DNA of 64,000 nucleotides from Escherichia phage JSE: sequence record EU863408. One strand, given 5' to 3'. The notes beneath the pieces were generated by a model. The model had not been told where the DNA came from. It did not search any database and was given only the letters and a program-made list of their open reading frames with translations. Every line of letters begins with the position of its first letter. The stretch's first letter is position 1. This document shows, one piece after another, positions 13,649 through 30,380 of this stretch. Made by a program: the position numbers and the translations under genes.

Positions 13649-14469
13649 TTAGTCACCTCACCGAAAATTGTAAATTGTCTACGATTCTCATCGCCGAAAG
13701 ATTCTACTACGTCGTTTACCTTGACGCAAGTCCCGCGCGGTAAAATTACTTCACATTCGCAAGGGTTCCATGCAATGGACCCAACAACAAAACCTTTATG
13801 ATCTTTTACATCAATCACCCATGATACATTACAAGAATGTTGCATCTTTCCGGTCATTGATTCATATCGATTCTCACAATAAAGGCTAGTGCTGTTTGAT
13901 AGCCATCCTCCAAAGATGATCGGTGTCATGCTGGTCGATACAAAGTTTTTAAAGGTAAACTCCTTATCTTCAATGATGCGCTCTATTGTCTGAATGTCAA
14001 GATGTTGACCGCGATAAAGAGTACCGTTTAACTTTTCGGTTTTATCCATGACGCAATCCATCAAATCAACAATCTCTGATATCTCATCGGTCATGTCTTC
14101 TTCGCCTAAGAGAGCACCATTTACCCATTCGTATTGTTCAGACACATAATCACAGATTGCAGTATATTCTTCTGGGGTTATGTTGTTATGTTTGTAATGT
14201 TTGAATACATTATCTCCAAAGTCTTCGGAGTGTACTTCATACATCACATTAATGATTTTCTTGACAAATCCATAATCTTGTGTCTCACGCTCAAGGAAGC
14301 GGATAACCTTCACATAATCATCAAAGTTAATCTGATCGCTGATCATCTCAGTGATCATGTAACCATTAATCCCCTCAATGTCATATGTTTCGATGTAATT
14401 ATCCATACGTTCCATCATTGATTCGCGTGATTCTTCCGAAAGACGAAAATCCTGTAATTGTTTGAACAT
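13645..14469 (-). CDS. Alt-like ADP-ribosyltransferase paralog (274 aa)
   Basis: Shares with the Alt C-terminal domain the ART motifs LYRG, FKNFVSTS, IFGGW and ECEVILPRG. Confidence 0.7.
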   Translation of the reverse strand: MFKQLQDFRLSEESRESMMERMDNYIETYDIEGINGYMITEMISDQINFDDYVKVIRFLERETQDYGFVKKIINVMYEVHSEDFGDNVFKHYKHNNITPEEYTAICDYVSEQYEWVNGALLGEEDMTDEISEIVDLMDCVMDKTEKLNGTLYRGQHLDIQTIERIIEDKEFTFKNFVSTSMTPIIFGGWLSNSTSLYCENRYESMTGKMQHSCNVSWVIDVKDHKGFVVGSIAWNPCECEVILPRGTCVKVNDVVESFGDENRRQFTIFGEVTK

Positions 14470-14547: not shown

Positions 14548-16599
14548 TTACATTTTAAATTTATCTGGCATTGCGTCTACAGATACCAGATCAGCGATAA
14601 GCTGACGTAGAGTTGCCTTATCTGCTTTCTTACGTTCGGTTTTAGCTTCGCTAATGAAGCTGGAGAAAGACAGGTCAGAAGCAGGTTTAACAACACCTTC
14701 ACGGATGAATGCATCACCGTCTGCGATCATCTCGCCAGATTCTTGTAATGCTGCCAGTTCATTTTTGTTCATAATATGTGCCTCAATGTAATAAGTTTCT
14801 TGTGAATCCGTCGATGCCGTAGCACGAGTTACCGTATCAAAGGATAACACAACACCGCGAGGAAGTAAAATCTCGCATTCTTTGTAAGCAAATGCTTTGT
14901 TACCTACTGGCAATACAGGGATGTTTTCCGCGCCAGCAATGGAGAAAGCAACATTAGCGCCACCTTCACCGCGAGAGCCAGCCATAGAATCAACACCAGC
15001 AACGGCACTAGCCACGTTTGCATTCCAGCCGCCAAAAATGTTAGGTGCAAGGGAAGTGCTCACATAGTTTTTAAAGTAAAACGCTTTTTGCTTACGTGCA
15101 GTTTCCCACATTTGCGACCGGAAGTCCATACCACGATACAGAATAGTACCCGGATCAAGTTTAACGCCATAGTTGGAGAAGGCATTATCCAGTGCATCGC
15201 ACATCTTGACCAATTCTTCTGGATCTGAGATTCCTTCAAACTCTTCCAGCTTACGGTCGGTTAGGAAGTTGTTCATATTGATGTATGCTGCATCGGCATA
15301 TTCGCTCAACACAAAACCTTCCGCGCCTGGCAGATCAAGATCAATATTTGCCATCATTTCACCCATGTTGCTAGCAATTGCTTCAAACATACCGGAAGCA
15401 ACATTACGTAGGGCATCGGTTTTAATCTGGGTGATATTACTACGCAGCATTTCAGCTTTTACATCTGCTGGCATAGACTGGTCTACTCGATCCATTGCCA
15501 GTGCGGTGATCTTGTTTTCGAATACTTCCTCGCTCATGATTTCTTTTAAGCGTTTGATTGATGCTGCGATAACTTCCGCAGACAACGGATCATATTGATC
15601 CTGAACTTTTACCAGTTCGCTTACTGCGTATTTTGCATCGGCTTCGCTTTCAAAAATAGTACGCATGAAACCATAGCGAGTGATAATATCACTTGTCCAG
15701 TCATTCAGAGAACGGGCGGTTGAACGTTCTAAGGCTTGACGATCAATCAGAGTATTAAACTGTTTCTTAGGTTCTGCTTCGGTGATATCTTCTTCCGGTT
15801 TAAGATTAATTTTTTCTGGATGATTCACATAGTCGCTGTTATAGGTCGCTTGAGTTTTCAGCATTTCTTCTTTAGTCAAACGAGATTTAGCCGCTACGCG
15901 TTGTTCCGCTTCCGCGTTTCGTTCTTCTTCTGACACAAGACTAGCCGCATACGCTTCATCTTTAGTCAGAGATTCACCAGTAGCCTTAGATACCCAGCGA
16001 TCACCTAAATCACTTTCTACTTTAGTGAACAAGGAATCATCAAGTTTAATCCCTTTAATCTTATCAATCGCCATACCGCGACGCTTGACAACAACTAAAG
16101 CGATCTTTTTGCTGGTCATTACTTCCTGCTGGAATACTTCAAACTTCGGTGTACGACGCACCAAACGCTCTATAACGCGCTTAACCAGTTCGGTCTTACC
16201 TTTCATGCGGGATACGTTAAAACGGAACATAACAGCGTCTAGTTGCGCTTTACGGGCTGTTTCCATAACCACATCAAAAGCACTTGACATAACTGCAATC
16301 GGGTTATCGCCTAGACCATTTTTAAGCTGTACAATACGACCGCTTTTGTTCATTTCGCACAGTACAACATGTGCGGTCTTGTCACCCATACGAATGATTT
16401 TAGGTGTTTTGTTGGTGAAGTTACAAAGACGGACAATCACATCTTTATCGCGTGTCTGTACTGCAAAAAGCTGTTTAGGATTCTGCTTAGGCTTTAAGCA
16501 CTGTACCGGGGCAATACTACCAAAGTTTTCTTCCTCTTCCGTCAACAGCCATTTCTCGAAAGATTCAATCATTAGATCGTCGATTTCTAAGTTAAACAT
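14548..16599 (-). CDS. alt: Alt ADP-ribosyltransferase (packaged RNA polymerase-modifying enzyme)
   Basis: 683 aa; C-terminal ART motifs YRG, YVSTS, ECEILLPRG; size and position as T4 alt. Confidence 0.85.
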   Translation of the reverse strand: MFNLEIDDLMIESFEKWLLTEEEENFGSIAPVQCLKPKQNPKQLFAVQTRDKDVIVRLCNFTNKTPKIIRMGDKTAHVVLCEMNKSGRIVQLKNGLGDNPIAVMSSAFDVVMETARKAQLDAVMFRFNVSRMKGKTELVKRVIERLVRRTPKFEVFQQEVMTSKKIALVVVKRRGMAIDKIKGIKLDDSLFTKVESDLGDRWVSKATGESLTKDEAYAASLVSEEERNAEAEQRVAAKSRLTKEEMLKTQATYNSDYVNHPEKINLKPEEDITEAEPKKQFNTLIDRQALERSTARSLNDWTSDIITRYGFMRTIFESEADAKYAVSELVKVQDQYDPLSAEVIAASIKRLKEIMSEEVFENKITALAMDRVDQSMPADVKAEMLRSNITQIKTDALRNVASGMFEAIASNMGEMMANIDLDLPGAEGFVLSEYADAAYINMNNFLTDRKLEEFEGISDPEELVKMCDALDNAFSNYGVKLDPGTILYRGMDFRSQMWETARKQKAFYFKNYVSTSLAPNIFGGWNANVASAVAGVDSMAGSRGEGGANVAFSIAGAENIPVLPVGNKAFAYKECEILLPRGVVLSFDTVTRATASTDSQETYYIEAHIMNKNELAALQESGEMIADGDAFIREGVVKPASDLSFSSFISEAKTERKKADKATLRQLIADLVSVDAMPDKFKM

Positions 16600-24981: not shown

Positions 24982-25455
24982 TTACTCCTTATTTTCGCGC
25001 TCGTACTTTTCGAAATAAAATTCTACTGGCTGGTCATGAATTGACAGCAAGCCAAAGCGTTTAGCCGCTCGCAATCCCATATTGCGCTGAATATACTTCT
25101 GGAAGTTCTCGCGTATACACTTACGCCAGTATTCTAAGCCCATACAGCTTTTATAAAGATTGCATTGTACACACGCCGGATTCATGTTATCAAGTATATC
25201 ATGTTCCGGTTTATGCATTCCTACGACCTTATACTTCCACGATCCATCATCATTACGGGCAATTCGTCCATTTTCATCATAGACTACCTTTGAGCGTCGC
25301 AATACTGGTTTGATGTGGTCTGCGTGCCAGCGATCCCCTAGTTCCTCGCCACAATAGGCACAACGTCCACCATATTTCATTTTCAGGATCTGGCGTTGCT
25401 CTTTCTTTGACAATTTTTTAGGTTTAGGGGCTTTCGCCCCTTCATTATCACACAT
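24982..25455 (-). CDS. HNH endonuclease
   Basis: HNH/zinc-finger motifs CAYCGE, WHADHIKP, NMNPACVQCN. Confidence 0.7.
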   Translation of the reverse strand: MCDNEGAKAPKPKKLSKKEQRQILKMKYGGRCAYCGEELGDRWHADHIKPVLRRSKVVYDENGRIARNDDGSWKYKVVGMHKPEHDILDNMNPACVQCNLYKSCMGLEYWRKCIRENFQKYIQRNMGLRAAKRFGLLSIHDQPVEFYFEKYERENKE

Positions 25456-26950
25456 CGAATACCTCTTTTACTGTATTTGCAGTGGTCTTGTCGTAGCGAA
25501 TACGTTTGATGATTGGGAGAAATAAAGAGAACTCCGGTTCATCTTCTTTACGTGATTTGCTGCGGATATACCCGTTGCATGTCATCTCAATGACTTTTCC
25601 AATCAGGTTATGACGGTCAGCCCATAACATTTCTCGGTCGAGTTCATTTCGACGATCGAACGGAATTACACGTTCAGTACCATCATCACCTTTTTCGGTT
25701 GTAGTGTCGGTTAATCCCGATCCGGTGTTAGTCATCATTCGTCCGCACGCACTACGGACAGTAAAACCGCCTACCTTATTGGGGTCTTTACTATGCGGAT
25801 ATACATCAACAATTTCCGCGTCGAAGTCAATCACTTCTTTAAATTTAACCTGATCTTTACTACGGCGATCTTCAAATACACCATGTAAATTTTTAAGGAT
25901 AATACCTTCTAAGCCCATGTTTACATAGCGATGATATACTTCGCGAGCTTCATCTATATTGTTAACTACAGTGTTTTCGATTATCTGAACACGAGGATCG
26001 TTAAGTTCTTCAACAATCTGTTTTAGTTCTTCGAATCGATCTTTATATTGCTTCGTTGCTTTCTCGTTTCCGTAATACACATCACGGTCGATAACATCCC
26101 AGACAGTGTAAACAATACATTGGGCTTCTTCTTTTGGAATAGTTCCTTTCAGTGATTTGTTGAGGATACCATTTACGGTCTGACGATCTGCAACAACGGA
26201 TTCTTTTACTGCTTCCGCTACTGGCGTTAATGGCATTTCCTCTTCTTCAAATATCCATGACAGAGTACCATCATAAACGCTTTCAACGAAGTTCTGCGCT
26301 GGTGTTTGCGAAAGGGTAGGCATATATACCAATTCCCCATCTAGAACAATTCCACGGCCTCGTAGACGCTCTAAAACAGCAAACAAATCATCCAGCCCCT
26401 GATAGGTATTACCTGAACGGGTATAGATTGCTAATGTTTCCCCGTCAATATCAGCCATCCCACGAGCGCCATCGCTTTTAAGTTGTGCATACGCCGGATA
26501 CTTGATATTAGCAATAGTCTTATCAGAACATGACGATGCAAGGTGACACGGTTGCTGGGGGATCAGTTTCTTCCATACCTTGTTTGCAGTGGTAGCTGAA
26601 CAGCCGCATTCCAGATCACGATTCAGGACCATCATTGCAACTTTAGCATCATCCTCTGACAAGCAAGTCAGAGTATCGGTAACTAGCTGTAATGCTGCAT
26701 TACCAGTTACTTGACGCGTGGCAAGTTTATTTTTAAAGACCTGTAATGCACCGGATAAAGACAATACAGACGAATAACGCGATGGTTTATCGTATTTCTT
26801 TACGCCAAACGTAACCTGTTTGCAATATGCCAGATAAAAACATTCTTTCAGTGTTTCATTGCTTGCAGATTCTTTCAGGATCTTTTCTTTCAGCGATGTT
26901 TTGTCTGTTGCTGCAAGCTGGTTAATGATATTAAGAATTGACATTTTCAC
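25448..26950 (-). CDS. 30: ATP-dependent DNA ligase gp30
   Basis: 500 aa; KxDG adenylation motif (QLKSDGARG); size and position as T4 ligase. Confidence 0.9.
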   Translation of the reverse strand: MKMSILNIINQLAATDKTSLKEKILKESASNETLKECFYLAYCKQVTFGVKKYDKPSRYSSVLSLSGALQVFKNKLATRQVTGNAALQLVTDTLTCLSEDDAKVAMMVLNRDLECGCSATTANKVWKKLIPQQPCHLASSCSDKTIANIKYPAYAQLKSDGARGMADIDGETLAIYTRSGNTYQGLDDLFAVLERLRGRGIVLDGELVYMPTLSQTPAQNFVESVYDGTLSWIFEEEEMPLTPVAEAVKESVVADRQTVNGILNKSLKGTIPKEEAQCIVYTVWDVIDRDVYYGNEKATKQYKDRFEELKQIVEELNDPRVQIIENTVVNNIDEAREVYHRYVNMGLEGIILKNLHGVFEDRRSKDQVKFKEVIDFDAEIVDVYPHSKDPNKVGGFTVRSACGRMMTNTGSGLTDTTTEKGDDGTERVIPFDRRNELDREMLWADRHNLIGKVIEMTCNGYIRSKSRKEDEPEFSLFLPIIKRIRYDKTTANTVKEVFDV

Positions 26951-27410
26951 CTCGTTTTGTTAAACGTTCACGAATATCATTGAGGATACTACAAAATTCC
27001 GATTCAGTCAATATAGTCTTTAACGGATCAGTTCCACCTATGCTATGACGTAATTTCTTATTTCCTGTAGCGAGTAATGCTTTACAAAATTCTGGGTTAT
27101 TCCGTGCCATCGTAACAAATGCCAGATGTACCAGTCTGTAATAATGCTCACTCATTCGATGAATCGGGCGACCCTGAAAATATAACATGTGATTCTCAAT
27201 CTTTTCAGTTCTTCCGGTTCTTTTTGCTTTGCCACCGTGCATCAAAAAGATTTCTCTTTGTCTCTGAGGGTTCTTAAATCTTAGCCCCTGTAAAAATCCT
27301 TCTGTGCTGTTAATATCGCAACCAAATAGACGGAATGGTCTTTTATTGAAATTACTCAATTCACCCGATGGATAAGGTCCACCCGCATAGATATCAATTT
27401 CAGAAGTCAT
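26931..27410 (-). CDS. NADAR (DUF1768, YbiA-like) domain protein
   Basis: LSNF motif, STEGFLQGLRF and ALLATGNKKLRHS segments resemble YbiA/NADAR. Confidence 0.55.
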   Translation of the reverse strand: MTSEIDIYAGGPYPSGELSNFNKRPFRLFGCDINSTEGFLQGLRFKNPQRQREIFLMHGGKAKRTGRTEKIENHMLYFQGRPIHRMSEHYYRLVHLAFVTMARNNPEFCKALLATGNKKLRHSIGGTDPLKTILTESEFCSILNDIRERLTKRGENVNS

Positions 27411-27564
27411 TGAAACTAATCTCGCTAATCAGAGAGAACGGATCATAATCGTCATTAGGAATATCGATAGTAATCGAATGAGGATTTACCCATACACCAA
27501 ACTGGTCTTCTTCGGTGAATACTTCGGTATGGATTTCGTGGATGTTTACATTCATAGTTTTCAT
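27400..27564 (-). CDS. small acidic protein (54 aa)
   Basis: Hand-translated ORF MKTMNVNIHEIH..; AGGAAT RBS. Confidence 0.3.
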   Translation of the reverse strand: MKTMNVNIHEIHTEVFTEEDQFGVWVNPHSITIDIPNDDYDPFSLISEISFNDF

Positions 27565-27646
27565 AATAAAATTCCTTAATAATCAATAACTTACAAAATC
27601 ATATAGCCAAAATATAGGCGGGATTATTTCCCGCCGTTTAAAATCA

Positions 27647-27970
27647 TTAACCGTAAACTACCACAATATTCTGTTTGTGTGTTACAGTCCATTTCAGGTC
27701 GATCTCTTCTTCCTTCTTAACGCCGTTAATAACGTCTGGGTGAGGAACTTTATTCATCTTGCCATGTGGCAGTAGAACAGTTTTACCCAGCAATTCTTTA
27801 TCTACAGTCTCGCCAATATCAATAATCTTACCTACCAGCGGAATCTCGCCCATAGTGCGCTTTTGCTCAATAATGATCCCCATAGAGCTTTTTACTTCGG
27901 TCCCTGCGCTTTCTGCTTTAGCTTCGATAATTACATAATCACCAAGTGCTTTAGGAGTTTTAACGGTCAT
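27647..27970 (-). CDS. 31: co-chaperonin gp31 (GroES-like)
   Basis: 107 aa; GroES-like mobile loop and fold pattern; synteny with 30 and cd. Confidence 0.8.
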   Translation of the reverse strand: MTVKTPKALGDYVIIEAKAESAGTEVKSSMGIIIEQKRTMGEIPLVGKIIDIGETVDKELLGKTVLLPHGKMNKVPHPDVINGVKKEEEIDLKWTVTHKQNIVVVYG

Positions 27971-28011: not shown

Positions 28012-28332
28012 TTATTTATAAATTTCGACGATCTGCGCGGGAGTCAGCCCATCTACATTAATCAGACTATCAAGCCCAAAACTACGGAAACCTTCAACTG
28101 CAATTTCATATACTGGCAAAGATGTTTCTGATTCTTTACGCGGTTTTTCAACATTCGGAACTAACCACTTTTCGTATGTTTCGAACGGCATCAGTGCCGG
28201 ATCTCGCGTGGCGATCATCTCACGGACAGTACCATCTTTCTTAGTAAACTGCAAAGAGTGAGTACCGACCGAAAACATTTTCTTTAGTGCTTCACGAAGT
28301 GCGATATTATCAACTTGTTCAGTCATTATCAA
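28012..28332 (-). CDS. hypothetical protein (106 aa)
   Basis: ORF between 31 and cd. Confidence 0.45.
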   Translation of the reverse strand: MIMTEQVDNIALREALKKMFSVGTHSLQFTKKDGTVREMIATRDPALMPFETYEKWLVPNVEKPRKESETSLPVYEIAVEGFRSFGLDSLINVDGLTPAQIVEIYK

Positions 28333-28825
28333 TACCCTTCAAATCAGTCAATAATGCTTTTGGAATACGCGTGATCGTAATATCTGCATTATTCAGAATA
28401 TCAGCCCAATCACGCCCACCATTTCGATCATATGTGTCGCAATAGTATAGATGTTTAATTCCACTGTTTGCAATTGCTTTAGCGCAATCTGGACACGGTG
28501 AAGCAGTACACCACATACTAGCGCCTTCAATCGATACACCGCTACGGGCAGCAAACAAAATAGCATTTAATTCAGCGTGGATCTCGTTTTTCTGTGACCA
28601 TGCACTATGCTCTGGTCGTTTTTCTGGGATCATTTTGCCGTCATCATCCAGCCAACCGTTTTTATGTGCATGACAGCTACAATTTACTTGCCCTGCTGGA
28701 GTTCCGTTAAATCCAGTAGAAATGATTCGCCCGTCTTTTTCGATCAGTGCGCCTACCTTCCACGAAACACATTTAGAGTTCTTTGCGATTAGATAGGCGA
28801 TCTGCATGTAAGTTTGTGACAACAT
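28319..28825 (-). CDS. cd: dCMP deaminase
   Basis: Zinc-deaminase motifs HAELNAI and PCPDCAKAI; similar to T4 Cd. Confidence 0.85.
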   Translation of the reverse strand: MLSQTYMQIAYLIAKNSKCVSWKVGALIEKDGRIISTGFNGTPAGQVNCSCHAHKNGWLDDDGKMIPEKRPEHSAWSQKNEIHAELNAILFAARSGVSIEGASMWCTASPCPDCAKAIANSGIKHLYYCDTYDRNGGRDWADILNNADITITRIPKALLTDLKGIDND

Positions 28826-28846: not shown

Positions 28847-29050
28847 TTAACCGTATACGCGAAAGTATTCTACCGATCCGTCGCTATACTGTTTTACATT
28901 GAATGTATTCACACCATGATCATTGCTCATAATGACATATACACTGCGACGCTCATCACCAAACGGGTTAACTGGTGCGGGTTCAATTTCAACATTAAAA
29001 CCACGTTTAGCAAGTGCTTCGCCTAATTGCTTGAGTTTATCGGTAAACAT
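28847..29050 (-). CDS. hypothetical protein (67 aa)
   Basis: ORF only. Confidence 0.4.
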   Translation of the reverse strand: MFTDKLKQLGEALAKRGFNVEIEPAPVNPFGDERRSVYVIMSNDHGVNTFNVKQYSDGSVEYFRVYG

Positions 29051-29928
29051 TAAAAGTCTCCGTAGTTAACCTGAAAACATTCTACACCAATTGAGCGGTA
29101 CATGTCAACCACTTGATCACGGTCATCTACTGCCAAAACAACATGATAACGCGGTGCAATTTCCGAGAAGAAGATCTCTTTCTTCACTTCATGGTCTGGA
29201 CGTCGATCATTAGTTTCACGCTGGAAGTGATCGCTAGGTTCAATACCCTGTTCACGCAGCCATTGCAGAGTATCTTCTTCGCAAACATCCTCACGCCCTG
29301 AGCATGTAATGATACGATAACCATTATCACGATACAGTTTAAGCATTTCGATCACTTGCGGACGCGGTTTATCTTCTTTGACCTTTGTCCAGTCAAACGG
29401 ATGACGACCGCCCTTATCCGCTAATGTCCCATCAATATCAAAGATCACCGCTTTCGGTAGCATGGTATTCGGTTTGTATACTTCTTGACCCATATATTCC
29501 TGCATAAGATAAAATTGGTTGCGCAGATGAGAAAGTGGAATTGCTTTCTCGCCGCGATAGAAATTACGTTTCTTTAGTGTCTCAAATGATTCATTGAACA
29601 CTTGTTCAGTATACACCGCGTTAAATTCTTTTGCAAGTTCTTTGTAGAATACACGATGTTTTTCTTTCAGGTTGGTATCAGAGATAATGATACTCAATCC
29701 GCGTGATAGAGTCTCGCGAGCAATCATTCTCTGAATAGACTCTACCAGCTTTTCTTTTTCCTTAGTATACTTGTATTTCAAAAGTGAGTCAACACCAAAC
29801 AACATAAGACGAAGATCATCACGATTCACATTACGATAATTACTAAACCGTTTACATGTTTCCATAGCCCATGTAGTTTTACCGGACCCAGAACAACCAA
29901 CGGTTAAAATCACTTCACATTTCGGCAT
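29050..29928 (-). CDS. pseT: polynucleotide 5-prime kinase / 3-prime phosphatase
   Basis: P-loop GCSGSGKTT and HAD motif VIFDIDGTLA; start taken at MPKCEVIL. Confidence 0.85.
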   Translation of the reverse strand: MPKCEVILTVGCSGSGKTTWAMETCKRFSNYRNVNRDDLRLMLFGVDSLLKYKYTKEKEKLVESIQRMIARETLSRGLSIIISDTNLKEKHRVFYKELAKEFNAVYTEQVFNESFETLKKRNFYRGEKAIPLSHLRNQFYLMQEYMGQEVYKPNTMLPKAVIFDIDGTLADKGGRHPFDWTKVKEDKPRPQVIEMLKLYRDNGYRIITCSGREDVCEEDTLQWLREQGIEPSDHFQRETNDRRPDHEVKKEIFFSEIAPRYHVVLAVDDRDQVVDMYRSIGVECFQVNYGDF

Positions 29929-30380
29929 TATTTCTCCTTCGGTTTGCACCGTTCCTCATTAAGTTCTTTGCGATAATAACACATGATCAACTTACTTTCA
30001 AGTGTATATCTCTTAATATCAGCCAACCAGACTCTAAATTTTTGGGAGTCCTCCCACGACATAGAAACTCTAGGTTTACCGTCTATTGTATCCACTTTCA
30101 GGTCAATGTCAACTTTTTCTATTGGTGCTGGTAGTGGAGGATGTAATTTCGGTTCCTGTGAATAATGGTCCATTGTACACGAAGAAAGAGCAAATACAAT
30201 AGGTACAGCGAAGACATGGATTATGGCGGTCTGAAAATTCTTATGTGCTTTCTTAAACAACCAGTGTATCACGAAAATTGAAAACACCATAAGGATAATA
30301 ATGCTTGCACCTATCCCCAGATAATCAACCAGATTAAAATTGCTTATCTGCTCTTGCGTAGGCAATATTTCTATGCTCAT
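29928..30380 (-). CDS. membrane protein (150 aa)
   Basis: Hydrophobic helices. Confidence 0.45.
   Translation of the reverse strand: MSIEILPTQEQISNFNLVDYLGIGASIIILMVFSIFVIHWLFKKAHKNFQTAIIHVFAVPIVFALSSCTMDHYSQEPKLHPPLPAPIEKVDIDLKVDTIDGKPRVSMSWEDSQKFRVWLADIKRYTLESKLIMCYYRKELNEERCKPKEK

Follow-up and report, generated by a model that had tools for sequence, protein, structure and literature searches.

We analyzed gene 30.3 of Escherichia phage JSE, which encodes a small protein of the NADAR superfamily and lies directly upstream of the DNA ligase gene in a 64,000-nucleotide stretch of the phage's sequence (record EU863408; hereafter, the window). Its open reading frame (ORF) runs from ATG to TAA over exactly positions 26931-27410 on the minus strand, encodes 159 amino acids, and points in the same direction as all of its neighbours. 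We annotate it as an AdfN-family phage NADAR from its matches to PF08010 and PHROG 652, its homology to proteins of phages RB49 and T4, and an AlphaFold2 model. An earlier reading of the window, made by a model from the letters and their ORFs without database searches (hereafter, the sequence-only reading), had placed a YbiA-like NADAR protein at this position immediately upstream of the ligase. It left the minus strand unstated, but the location is correct, and so are the motif segments that it quoted: GELSNFNKRPF, STEGFLQGLRF, and ALLATGNKKLRHS are all found in the ORF, and the quoted motifs align with YbiA. On its downstream side, 30.3 contains within its own 3' end the Shine-Dalgarno sequence GAGGTG and the ATG of gene 30 (26944-26957, minus strand), read from the sequence and from RB49 record AJ550428 (ribosome-binding site at 1018-1021, start of the coding sequence at 1027). 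Gene 30 itself encodes an ATP-dependent DNA ligase of 500 amino acids (25448-26944, minus strand, with the start at 26944 or 26950). On its upstream side, the start of 30.3 is overlapped by the last 11 nucleotides of gene 31.-1, a 54-amino-acid ORF (27400-27564, minus strand; PHROG 15277, E = 3.7e-42) that carries the name gp31.-1 in RB49.

The protein belongs to a large and well-delimited phage family. It matches Pfam PF08010 (Phage_30_3, 'Bacteriophage protein GP30.3') across the whole profile (positions 2-138 of 138) with E = 1.2e-38 and 132.5 bits (cutoff 36), and it matches PHROG 652 with E = 2.5e-45. Matches by tblastn occurred in 1508 phage records, chiefly T4-like phages of Escherichia, Klebsiella, Acinetobacter, Aeromonas, and Vibrio, and an exhaustive family search gathered 973 representative clusters at E <= 1e-3. 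Given the Pfam match and the 1508 records, a chance ORF is far too unlikely an explanation. The JSE protein is 100% identical to CAD79437, which is labelled gp30.3 in the RB49 record AJ550428, where genes 31, 31.-1, and 30 are named as well, and by BLASTP it shows full-length similarity to T4 gp30.3 (residues 3-150 vs 2-152, 38% identity, E = 2e-30). The 3 kb around 30.3 are 98-99% identical to 58 records of Krischvirus (RB49-like phages), the closest being Shigella phage Sf20 at 99.0%, and a protein at least 95% identical to the JSE protein is encoded in 58 phage records. A codon-by-codon check of three other Krischvirus records found the gene intact, with no premature stop; the ratio of nonsynonymous to synonymous substitution rates within Krischvirus rests on 3-4 differing codons per pair, too few for inference. 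The JSE protein is almost certainly a phage NADAR of the gp30.3 family and the orthologue of the T4 gene now called adfN.

The structural evidence points to the same superfamily. The AlphaFold2 model, built from a 12-sequence alignment, has a mean predicted local distance difference test score of 94.3 and a predicted template modelling score of 0.89. Fold searches with this model returned the same two top matches (Foldseek E = 3e-6 and 1e-3, all others with E > 3), and the protein has the fold of the NADAR superfamily (PF08719, DUF1768). Remote homology agrees: in a search with a profile of 82 gp30.3-family sequences, the top match among PDB sequences was YbiA (E = 7e-4), and 21 of the 82 family members reach PF08719 individually at E <= 0.01, the best of them at 1.1e-6. 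In the profile alignment to Escherichia coli YbiA, SmEGfLqslkf lies opposite TSEHYFQAQKF, and LlAT..kL opposite LLLATAPAKL. The modelled fold and the remote homology make the NADAR assignment secure, and the protein is placed in this superfamily even though Pfam files gp30.3 separately as PF08010. We also considered DltA (PDB 7vhv, E = 3.8e-4), which was the best match in the PDB for a phmmer search with the single sequence, a search that returned no NADAR, and which had a weak echo in NCBIfam. We judged this match spurious because neither fold search retrieved a structure of an adenylation domain and because the profile searches yield YbiA.

The residues expected of an active site can be located by alignment with characterized NADARs. 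The catalytic glutamate, E37 (codon GAA, 27300-27302, minus strand), corresponds by pairwise alignment and family columns to E36 of T4 AdfN, E88 of the E. coli C7 NADAR, and E43 of the Phytophthora NADAR, whose catalytic role has been reported (PMC11825919, PMC11543638). In 168 aligned gp30.3-family domains, on which all of our column counts are based, 162 carry glutamate in this column, and E37 is also invariant in two family alignments. The four NADAR families, of which the gp30.3 proteins are the 'phage NADARs' (PMC11125620, PMC11543638, PMC12945103), are told apart by a residue on the last strand, which is histidine in phage NADARs, glutamate in those of YbiA type, and aspartate in DarT1-associated ones (PMC11125620, PMC11543638). 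The JSE protein has histidine, H122 (codon CAT, 27045-27047, minus strand), at the residue following strand E119-121 of the model, as do 161 of the 168 domains. The C-terminal helix (model residues 136-157 plus tail; 26934-27005, minus strand) is intact in the model, and the alignment with T4 gp30.3 extends as far as the final residue of the T4 protein. The counterpart of this helix is missing from the inactive RB69 allele (PMC11825919).

One position departs from the canonical pattern. Seven residues past E37, the same spacing as in the T4, E. coli C7, and Phytophthora proteins, the alignment places R44 (codon AGA, 27279-27281, minus strand) in the column of the pyrophosphate-binding lysine (T4 K43, E. 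coli C7 K95, Phytophthora K50), a residue that in the E. coli C7 protein coordinates the pyrophosphate and adenine of ADP-ribose (PMC11543638). That R44 would lie in the cleft is a prediction from this alignment, not from distances in the model. Lysine occupies the column in 151 family domains, arginine in 11 (about 7% of the family), another residue in 4, and a gap in 2. The carriers of arginine fall in at least four lineages, their nearest neighbours bear lysine, and they keep both the glutamate and the histidine, a distribution that suggests a recurrent and apparently tolerated variant. The position stays basic, and the lysine is a catalytic residue that does not define homology, so that the arginine leaves the family assignment unaffected.

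The function of the T4 orthologue has been established by experiment. Johannesman et al. (Nat Commun 2025) mapped T-even phages' resistance to the DarTG1 defence system to gene 30.3, which they renamed adfN, for anti-DarT factor NADAR (PMC11825919). The gene is necessary, since T4 and T2 deletion mutants fail to plaque on DarTG1 cells, and sufficient, since T4 adfN rescues RB69, whose own allele is 15 residues short (PMC11825919). Purified T4 AdfN strips ADP-ribose from DarT1-modified DNA, and E36A, K43A, and truncation of the C-terminus each lower its function, the loss with K43A being partial (PMC11825919). It removes ADP-ribose from guanine (G-ADPr) and not from cytosine (C-ADPr) (PMC12945103), is without activity on ADP-ribosylated thymine (T-ADPr), the modification made by DarT2, and is ineffective against DarTG2 (PMC11825919). 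The phages in that study were T2, T4, T6, RB69, and BASEL phages Bas35-47, among which Bas46 and Bas47 are the closest relatives of RB69, not of RB49 (PMC11825919); a table of phage NADARs in Toxins 2024 lists those of T4, Klebsiella phage KpV477, and Rhizobium phage RL38J1, with RB49 not among them. With gp30.3 annotated in RB49 since the original deposit, the family described, and the T4 mechanism published in 2024-2025, the finding made here is already known.

We propose that gp30.3 of JSE, on its model a minimal single-domain N-glycohydrolase of the NADAR fold, acts in the same way. Host toxins of the DarT1 type would place ADP-ribose on guanine N2 as the phage DNA replicates. The open cleft of gp30.3 would bind this ADP-ribose, with R44 replacing the usual lysine at the pyrophosphate and with E37 and H122 flanking the distal ribose. 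Cleavage of the ribose-guanine bond would release free ADP-ribose and an intact base, and replication could then continue in hosts that bear DarTG1. The two proteins have much in common besides orthology and PF08010 membership: they are of similar length (159 vs 152 amino acids), are encoded in the same interval between genes 30 and 31, and share the single-domain NADAR core, the catalytic glutamate (E37/E36), the subfamily histidine, and the C-terminal helix. By analogy, we infer that the RB49-type protein hydrolyzes G-ADPr and confers resistance to DarTG1 as T4 AdfN does, and its likely function, in our view, is to clear phage DNA of guanine ADP-ribose and so counter DarT1-type toxins. Our confidence is discounted because the two proteins share only 38% identity, because the lysine is naturally replaced by arginine, and because of the cofactor question raised below. 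An anti-DarTG role had been suggested in the sequence-only reading; orthology to T4 AdfN supports it, and the idea was already in print.

Several observations weigh against this proposal. Taken singly, the protein scores 15.5 bits (E = 0.021) against the Pfam NADAR profile PF08719, under its gathering cutoff of 35.1, and its best NCBIfam match, 'NADAR family anti-phage protein', is not significant (E = 0.023). The PADLOC models, including the one for DarG, gave no match, a result that is uninformative here because T4 AdfN also goes unmatched. Our literature search found no paper joining RB49 or Krischvirus with DarTG, and co-mentions of RB49 and DarT were incidental. T4 AdfN is fully active only during T-even infection, which implies an additional phage cofactor (PMC11825919), and it gives uninfected E. 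coli no protection from DarT1 (PMC11825919, PMC11125620). The identity to T4 AdfN is low, and the canonical phosphate-binding lysine is replaced by R44. When K95R was engineered into the E. coli C7 DarG1 NADAR, the mutant kept G-ADPr hydrolysis in vitro and lost rescue from DarT1 in vivo (PMC11543638). This lysine-to-arginine change is the one real uncertainty in transferring function to the JSE protein. Because T4 AdfN itself fails in uninfected cells, the assay of host rescue from a DarT toxin that accompanied the sequence-only reading could give a false negative. The profile search against NADAR/DUF1768 that it also suggested has a divided outcome, with the single protein falling short of PF08719 and the family profile finding YbiA. 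Its label 'NADAR (YbiA-like)' likewise stands in part: the protein is a NADAR by fold and profile and is not of strict YbiA type, having H122 in place of the glutamate and too low a score against PF08719.

The arginine opens an alternative that we consider unlikely, in which the protein is a genuine G-ADPr NADAR in vitro that R44 renders ineffective against E. coli C7-type DarT1 in vivo, and which is kept for another target: a YarT-like toxin, a pierisin/ScARP-like toxin, a divergent DarT1, or ADP-ribosylated RNA. The behaviour of K95R would fit this, as would the removal of G-ADPr from RNA by NADARs of all four families (PMC12945103) and the marked specificity that NADARs display in vivo despite their common activity in vitro (PMC11125620). 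K95R, however, was engineered in the distant DarG1 subfamily, which has aspartate on the last strand and an N-terminal extension, whereas in the phage subfamily the active-site partner is histidine. Moreover, arginine has arisen on at least four occasions without loss of E37 or H122, which argues for a tolerated residue of equivalent function, and T4 K43A lost activity only in part. In the same vein, we are doubtful that the substitution in Krischvirus and at least three other gp30.3 lineages marks a functionally shifted AdfN instead of a neutral change; such an enzyme could be tuned to another DarT1-like or guanine ADP-ribosyltransferase or to RNA, or could be freed from the T-even cofactor.

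Comparison with other NADARs bears on a second alternative, that the substrate is a small molecule and not DNA, either an ADP-ribose-derived immune signal or an N-glycoside of the riboflavin pathway as for YbiA-type proteins. The fold is common to YbiA, and in a proposal by Iyer et al. 2022, soluble ADP-ribose derivatives are the principal targets of phage NADARs (PMC9503650). That proposal is older than the experiments, in which the T4 orthologue acted on ADP-ribosylated DNA and proved necessary and sufficient against DarTG1, and the glutamate that defines E. coli YbiA (PDB 2b3w; PF08719) is H122 in the JSE protein, which is not of YbiA type. We therefore regard a small-molecule substrate as very improbable. 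YbiA-type NADARs also differ from the T4 phage NADAR in removing C-ADPr (PMC12945103). The DarG1 proteins of E. coli C7 and Geobacter lovleyi (PDB 8bat) differ from the JSE protein in their last-strand aspartate, their N-terminal extension, their length (219 vs 159 amino acids), and their adjacent darT1; the JSE protein consists of the core domain only and is an orphan, with 31.-1 and the ligase gene in place of a toxin neighbour. Closer in biology are AdfN-Bas32 and AdfN-Bas60 of T5-like phages and Vequintavirinae, also orphan phage NADARs that counter DarTG1. According to their authors, these derive independently from other branches of the NADARs and act with no phage cofactor (PMC11825919), whereas the JSE protein falls in the T4-type cluster.

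Within the gp30.3 family we also noted variation in architecture and annotation. Tandem two-domain proteins of about 290 amino acids occur (P0019, P0069, P0117, and P0135), in which one copy lacks the catalytic glutamate and has N, A, or Q instead. An unassigned N-terminal part of about 310 amino acids recurs in proteins of about 470 amino acids (P0024, P0039, and P0076), and the domain is fused to a calcineurin-like phosphoesterase in P0058 and to BspA-type leucine-rich repeats in P0061. The first of these fusions provided a lead that T4 gp30.2 might be a calcineurin-like phosphoesterase and the AdfN cofactor; gp30.2 matches no Pfam family and does not resemble P0058, and the window lacks a 30.2 homologue, so we rejected the lead. 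Among the matches listed, most homologues are labelled 'hypothetical protein' (e.g., PQ657790.1, Klebsiella phage Roth16), one is labelled 'anti-CBASS protein acb1' and one 'swarming motility YbiA-like protein', and none bears the AdfN name.

The surroundings of 30.3 are syntenic with T4, in that its neighbours include homologues of gene 30, gene 31, 31.1, and cd. The order of transcription on the minus strand is polynucleotide kinase/phosphatase (29050-29949), a 67-amino-acid ORF, the dCMP deaminase gene cd (28319-28825), a gp31.1-like WYL_2 protein (28012-28332; PF10902, E = 1.2e-9, an Sm-like SH3 barrel), the gene 31 co-chaperonin (27647-27970), a hairpin, 31.-1, 30.3, the ligase gene, and an HNH endonuclease gene (24982-25455). 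The ligase is well supported (PF01068, E = 3.9e-22; PHROG 114, E = 4.6e-141; 41% identity to T4 gp30, E = 7e-113). The 11-nucleotide overlap of 31.-1 with 30.3, together with the ligase ribosome-binding site and start codon inside 30.3, makes 31.-1, 30.3, and 30 a tightly coupled string, and 30.3 is probably transcribed together with the ligase gene and coupled to it in translation. The upstream edge of this string is marked by the hairpin, a G+C-rich, terminator-like element followed by a run of T between 31 and 31.-1 (27617-27635, minus strand), which was recognized by consensus scan only and from the sequence and is labelled a putative terminator in phage G2248. A scan for sigma-70 promoters gave 20 matches against 17.9 +/- 4.2 in shuffled sequence, and hence no excess.

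Gene content in this interval is much reduced relative to T4. Upstream of gene 30, T4 has 30.1, 30.2, 30.3 with its internal 30.3', 30.4 to 30.9, rIII, and then 31. The interval between genes 30 and 31 thus holds 11 ORFs in T4 and two in JSE, where 31.-1, the only gene other than 30.3, lacks a counterpart in the T4 interval. From the T4 set (30.1-30.9, 30.3', and rIII) only 30.3 is kept: a tblastn search of the window detected no homologue of the others, including 30.2 and rIII, while further T4 matches in the window were to 30, 31.1, cd, and alt. The sequence-only reading was right that rIII is not seen here and wrong that rIII holds this position in T4, where 30.3 itself lies two ORFs upstream of the ligase gene and rIII lies beside gene 31.

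These differences also bear on the suggestion, made in the sequence-only reading, that a NADAR beside the ligase serves as a DNA-repair accessory, which we regard as highly improbable. The overlap of 30.3 with the ligase start and the probable translational coupling would be in keeping with such a role. However, two genes part 30.3 from 30 in T4, and among the rows sampled from the phage search, ligase is listed under the 30.3 match only in Krischvirus records. The chemistry offers no place for a ligase either, because hydrolysis of the ribose-N2 bond by NADARs leaves base and backbone intact and makes no nick (PMC11543638), so that there is no ligation step. The adjacency exists because 30.1 and 30.2 are absent, and it reflects inherited gene order, neither a functional partnership nor a coupling to repair. 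The anti-DarT1 function proposed above makes no use of the neighbouring ligase, and the abutment of the two genes in JSE is one of the differences from T4.

Elsewhere around the locus, the HNH ORF downstream of gene 30 encodes 157 amino acids (PF01844, E = 5e-6) and starts 8 nucleotides before the ligase stop, at a place where T4 has alt.1 and alt; it may be an inserted free-standing homing endonuclease. T4 Alt, a virion ADP-ribosyltransferase that modifies RNA polymerase, has matches in the window at 14557-16509 (27% identity, E = 4e-59) and 13699-14178 (31%, E = 1e-19), both on the minus strand, and JSE, like T4, therefore carries ADP-ribosyltransferases of its own, some 10 kb downstream of 30.3. 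Several GenBank records call the gp31.1 homologue 'tail fiber protein', a label that is probably carried over from a weak PHROG match.

The other known anti-DarT factor of T-even phages, AdfA (gp61.2), had no match in the window. In the phage database, AdfA was seen only at identities of at least 60% and looks restricted to Tequatrovirus and Mosigvirus types. By inference, Krischviruses appear to lack it, a difference from T4 that is apparently genus-wide.

A blind reading of raw sequence here recovered a real counter-defence gene. As a natural variant, the JSE enzyme is well suited to asking what the lysine or arginine residue contributes, the same substitution having split in vitro from in vivo activity in a bacterial DarG1. 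In an otherwise stripped-down Krischvirus locus, 30.3 alone survives from the interval between genes 30 and 31 of T4, and these phages may have no known type of anti-DarT factor other than AdfN.

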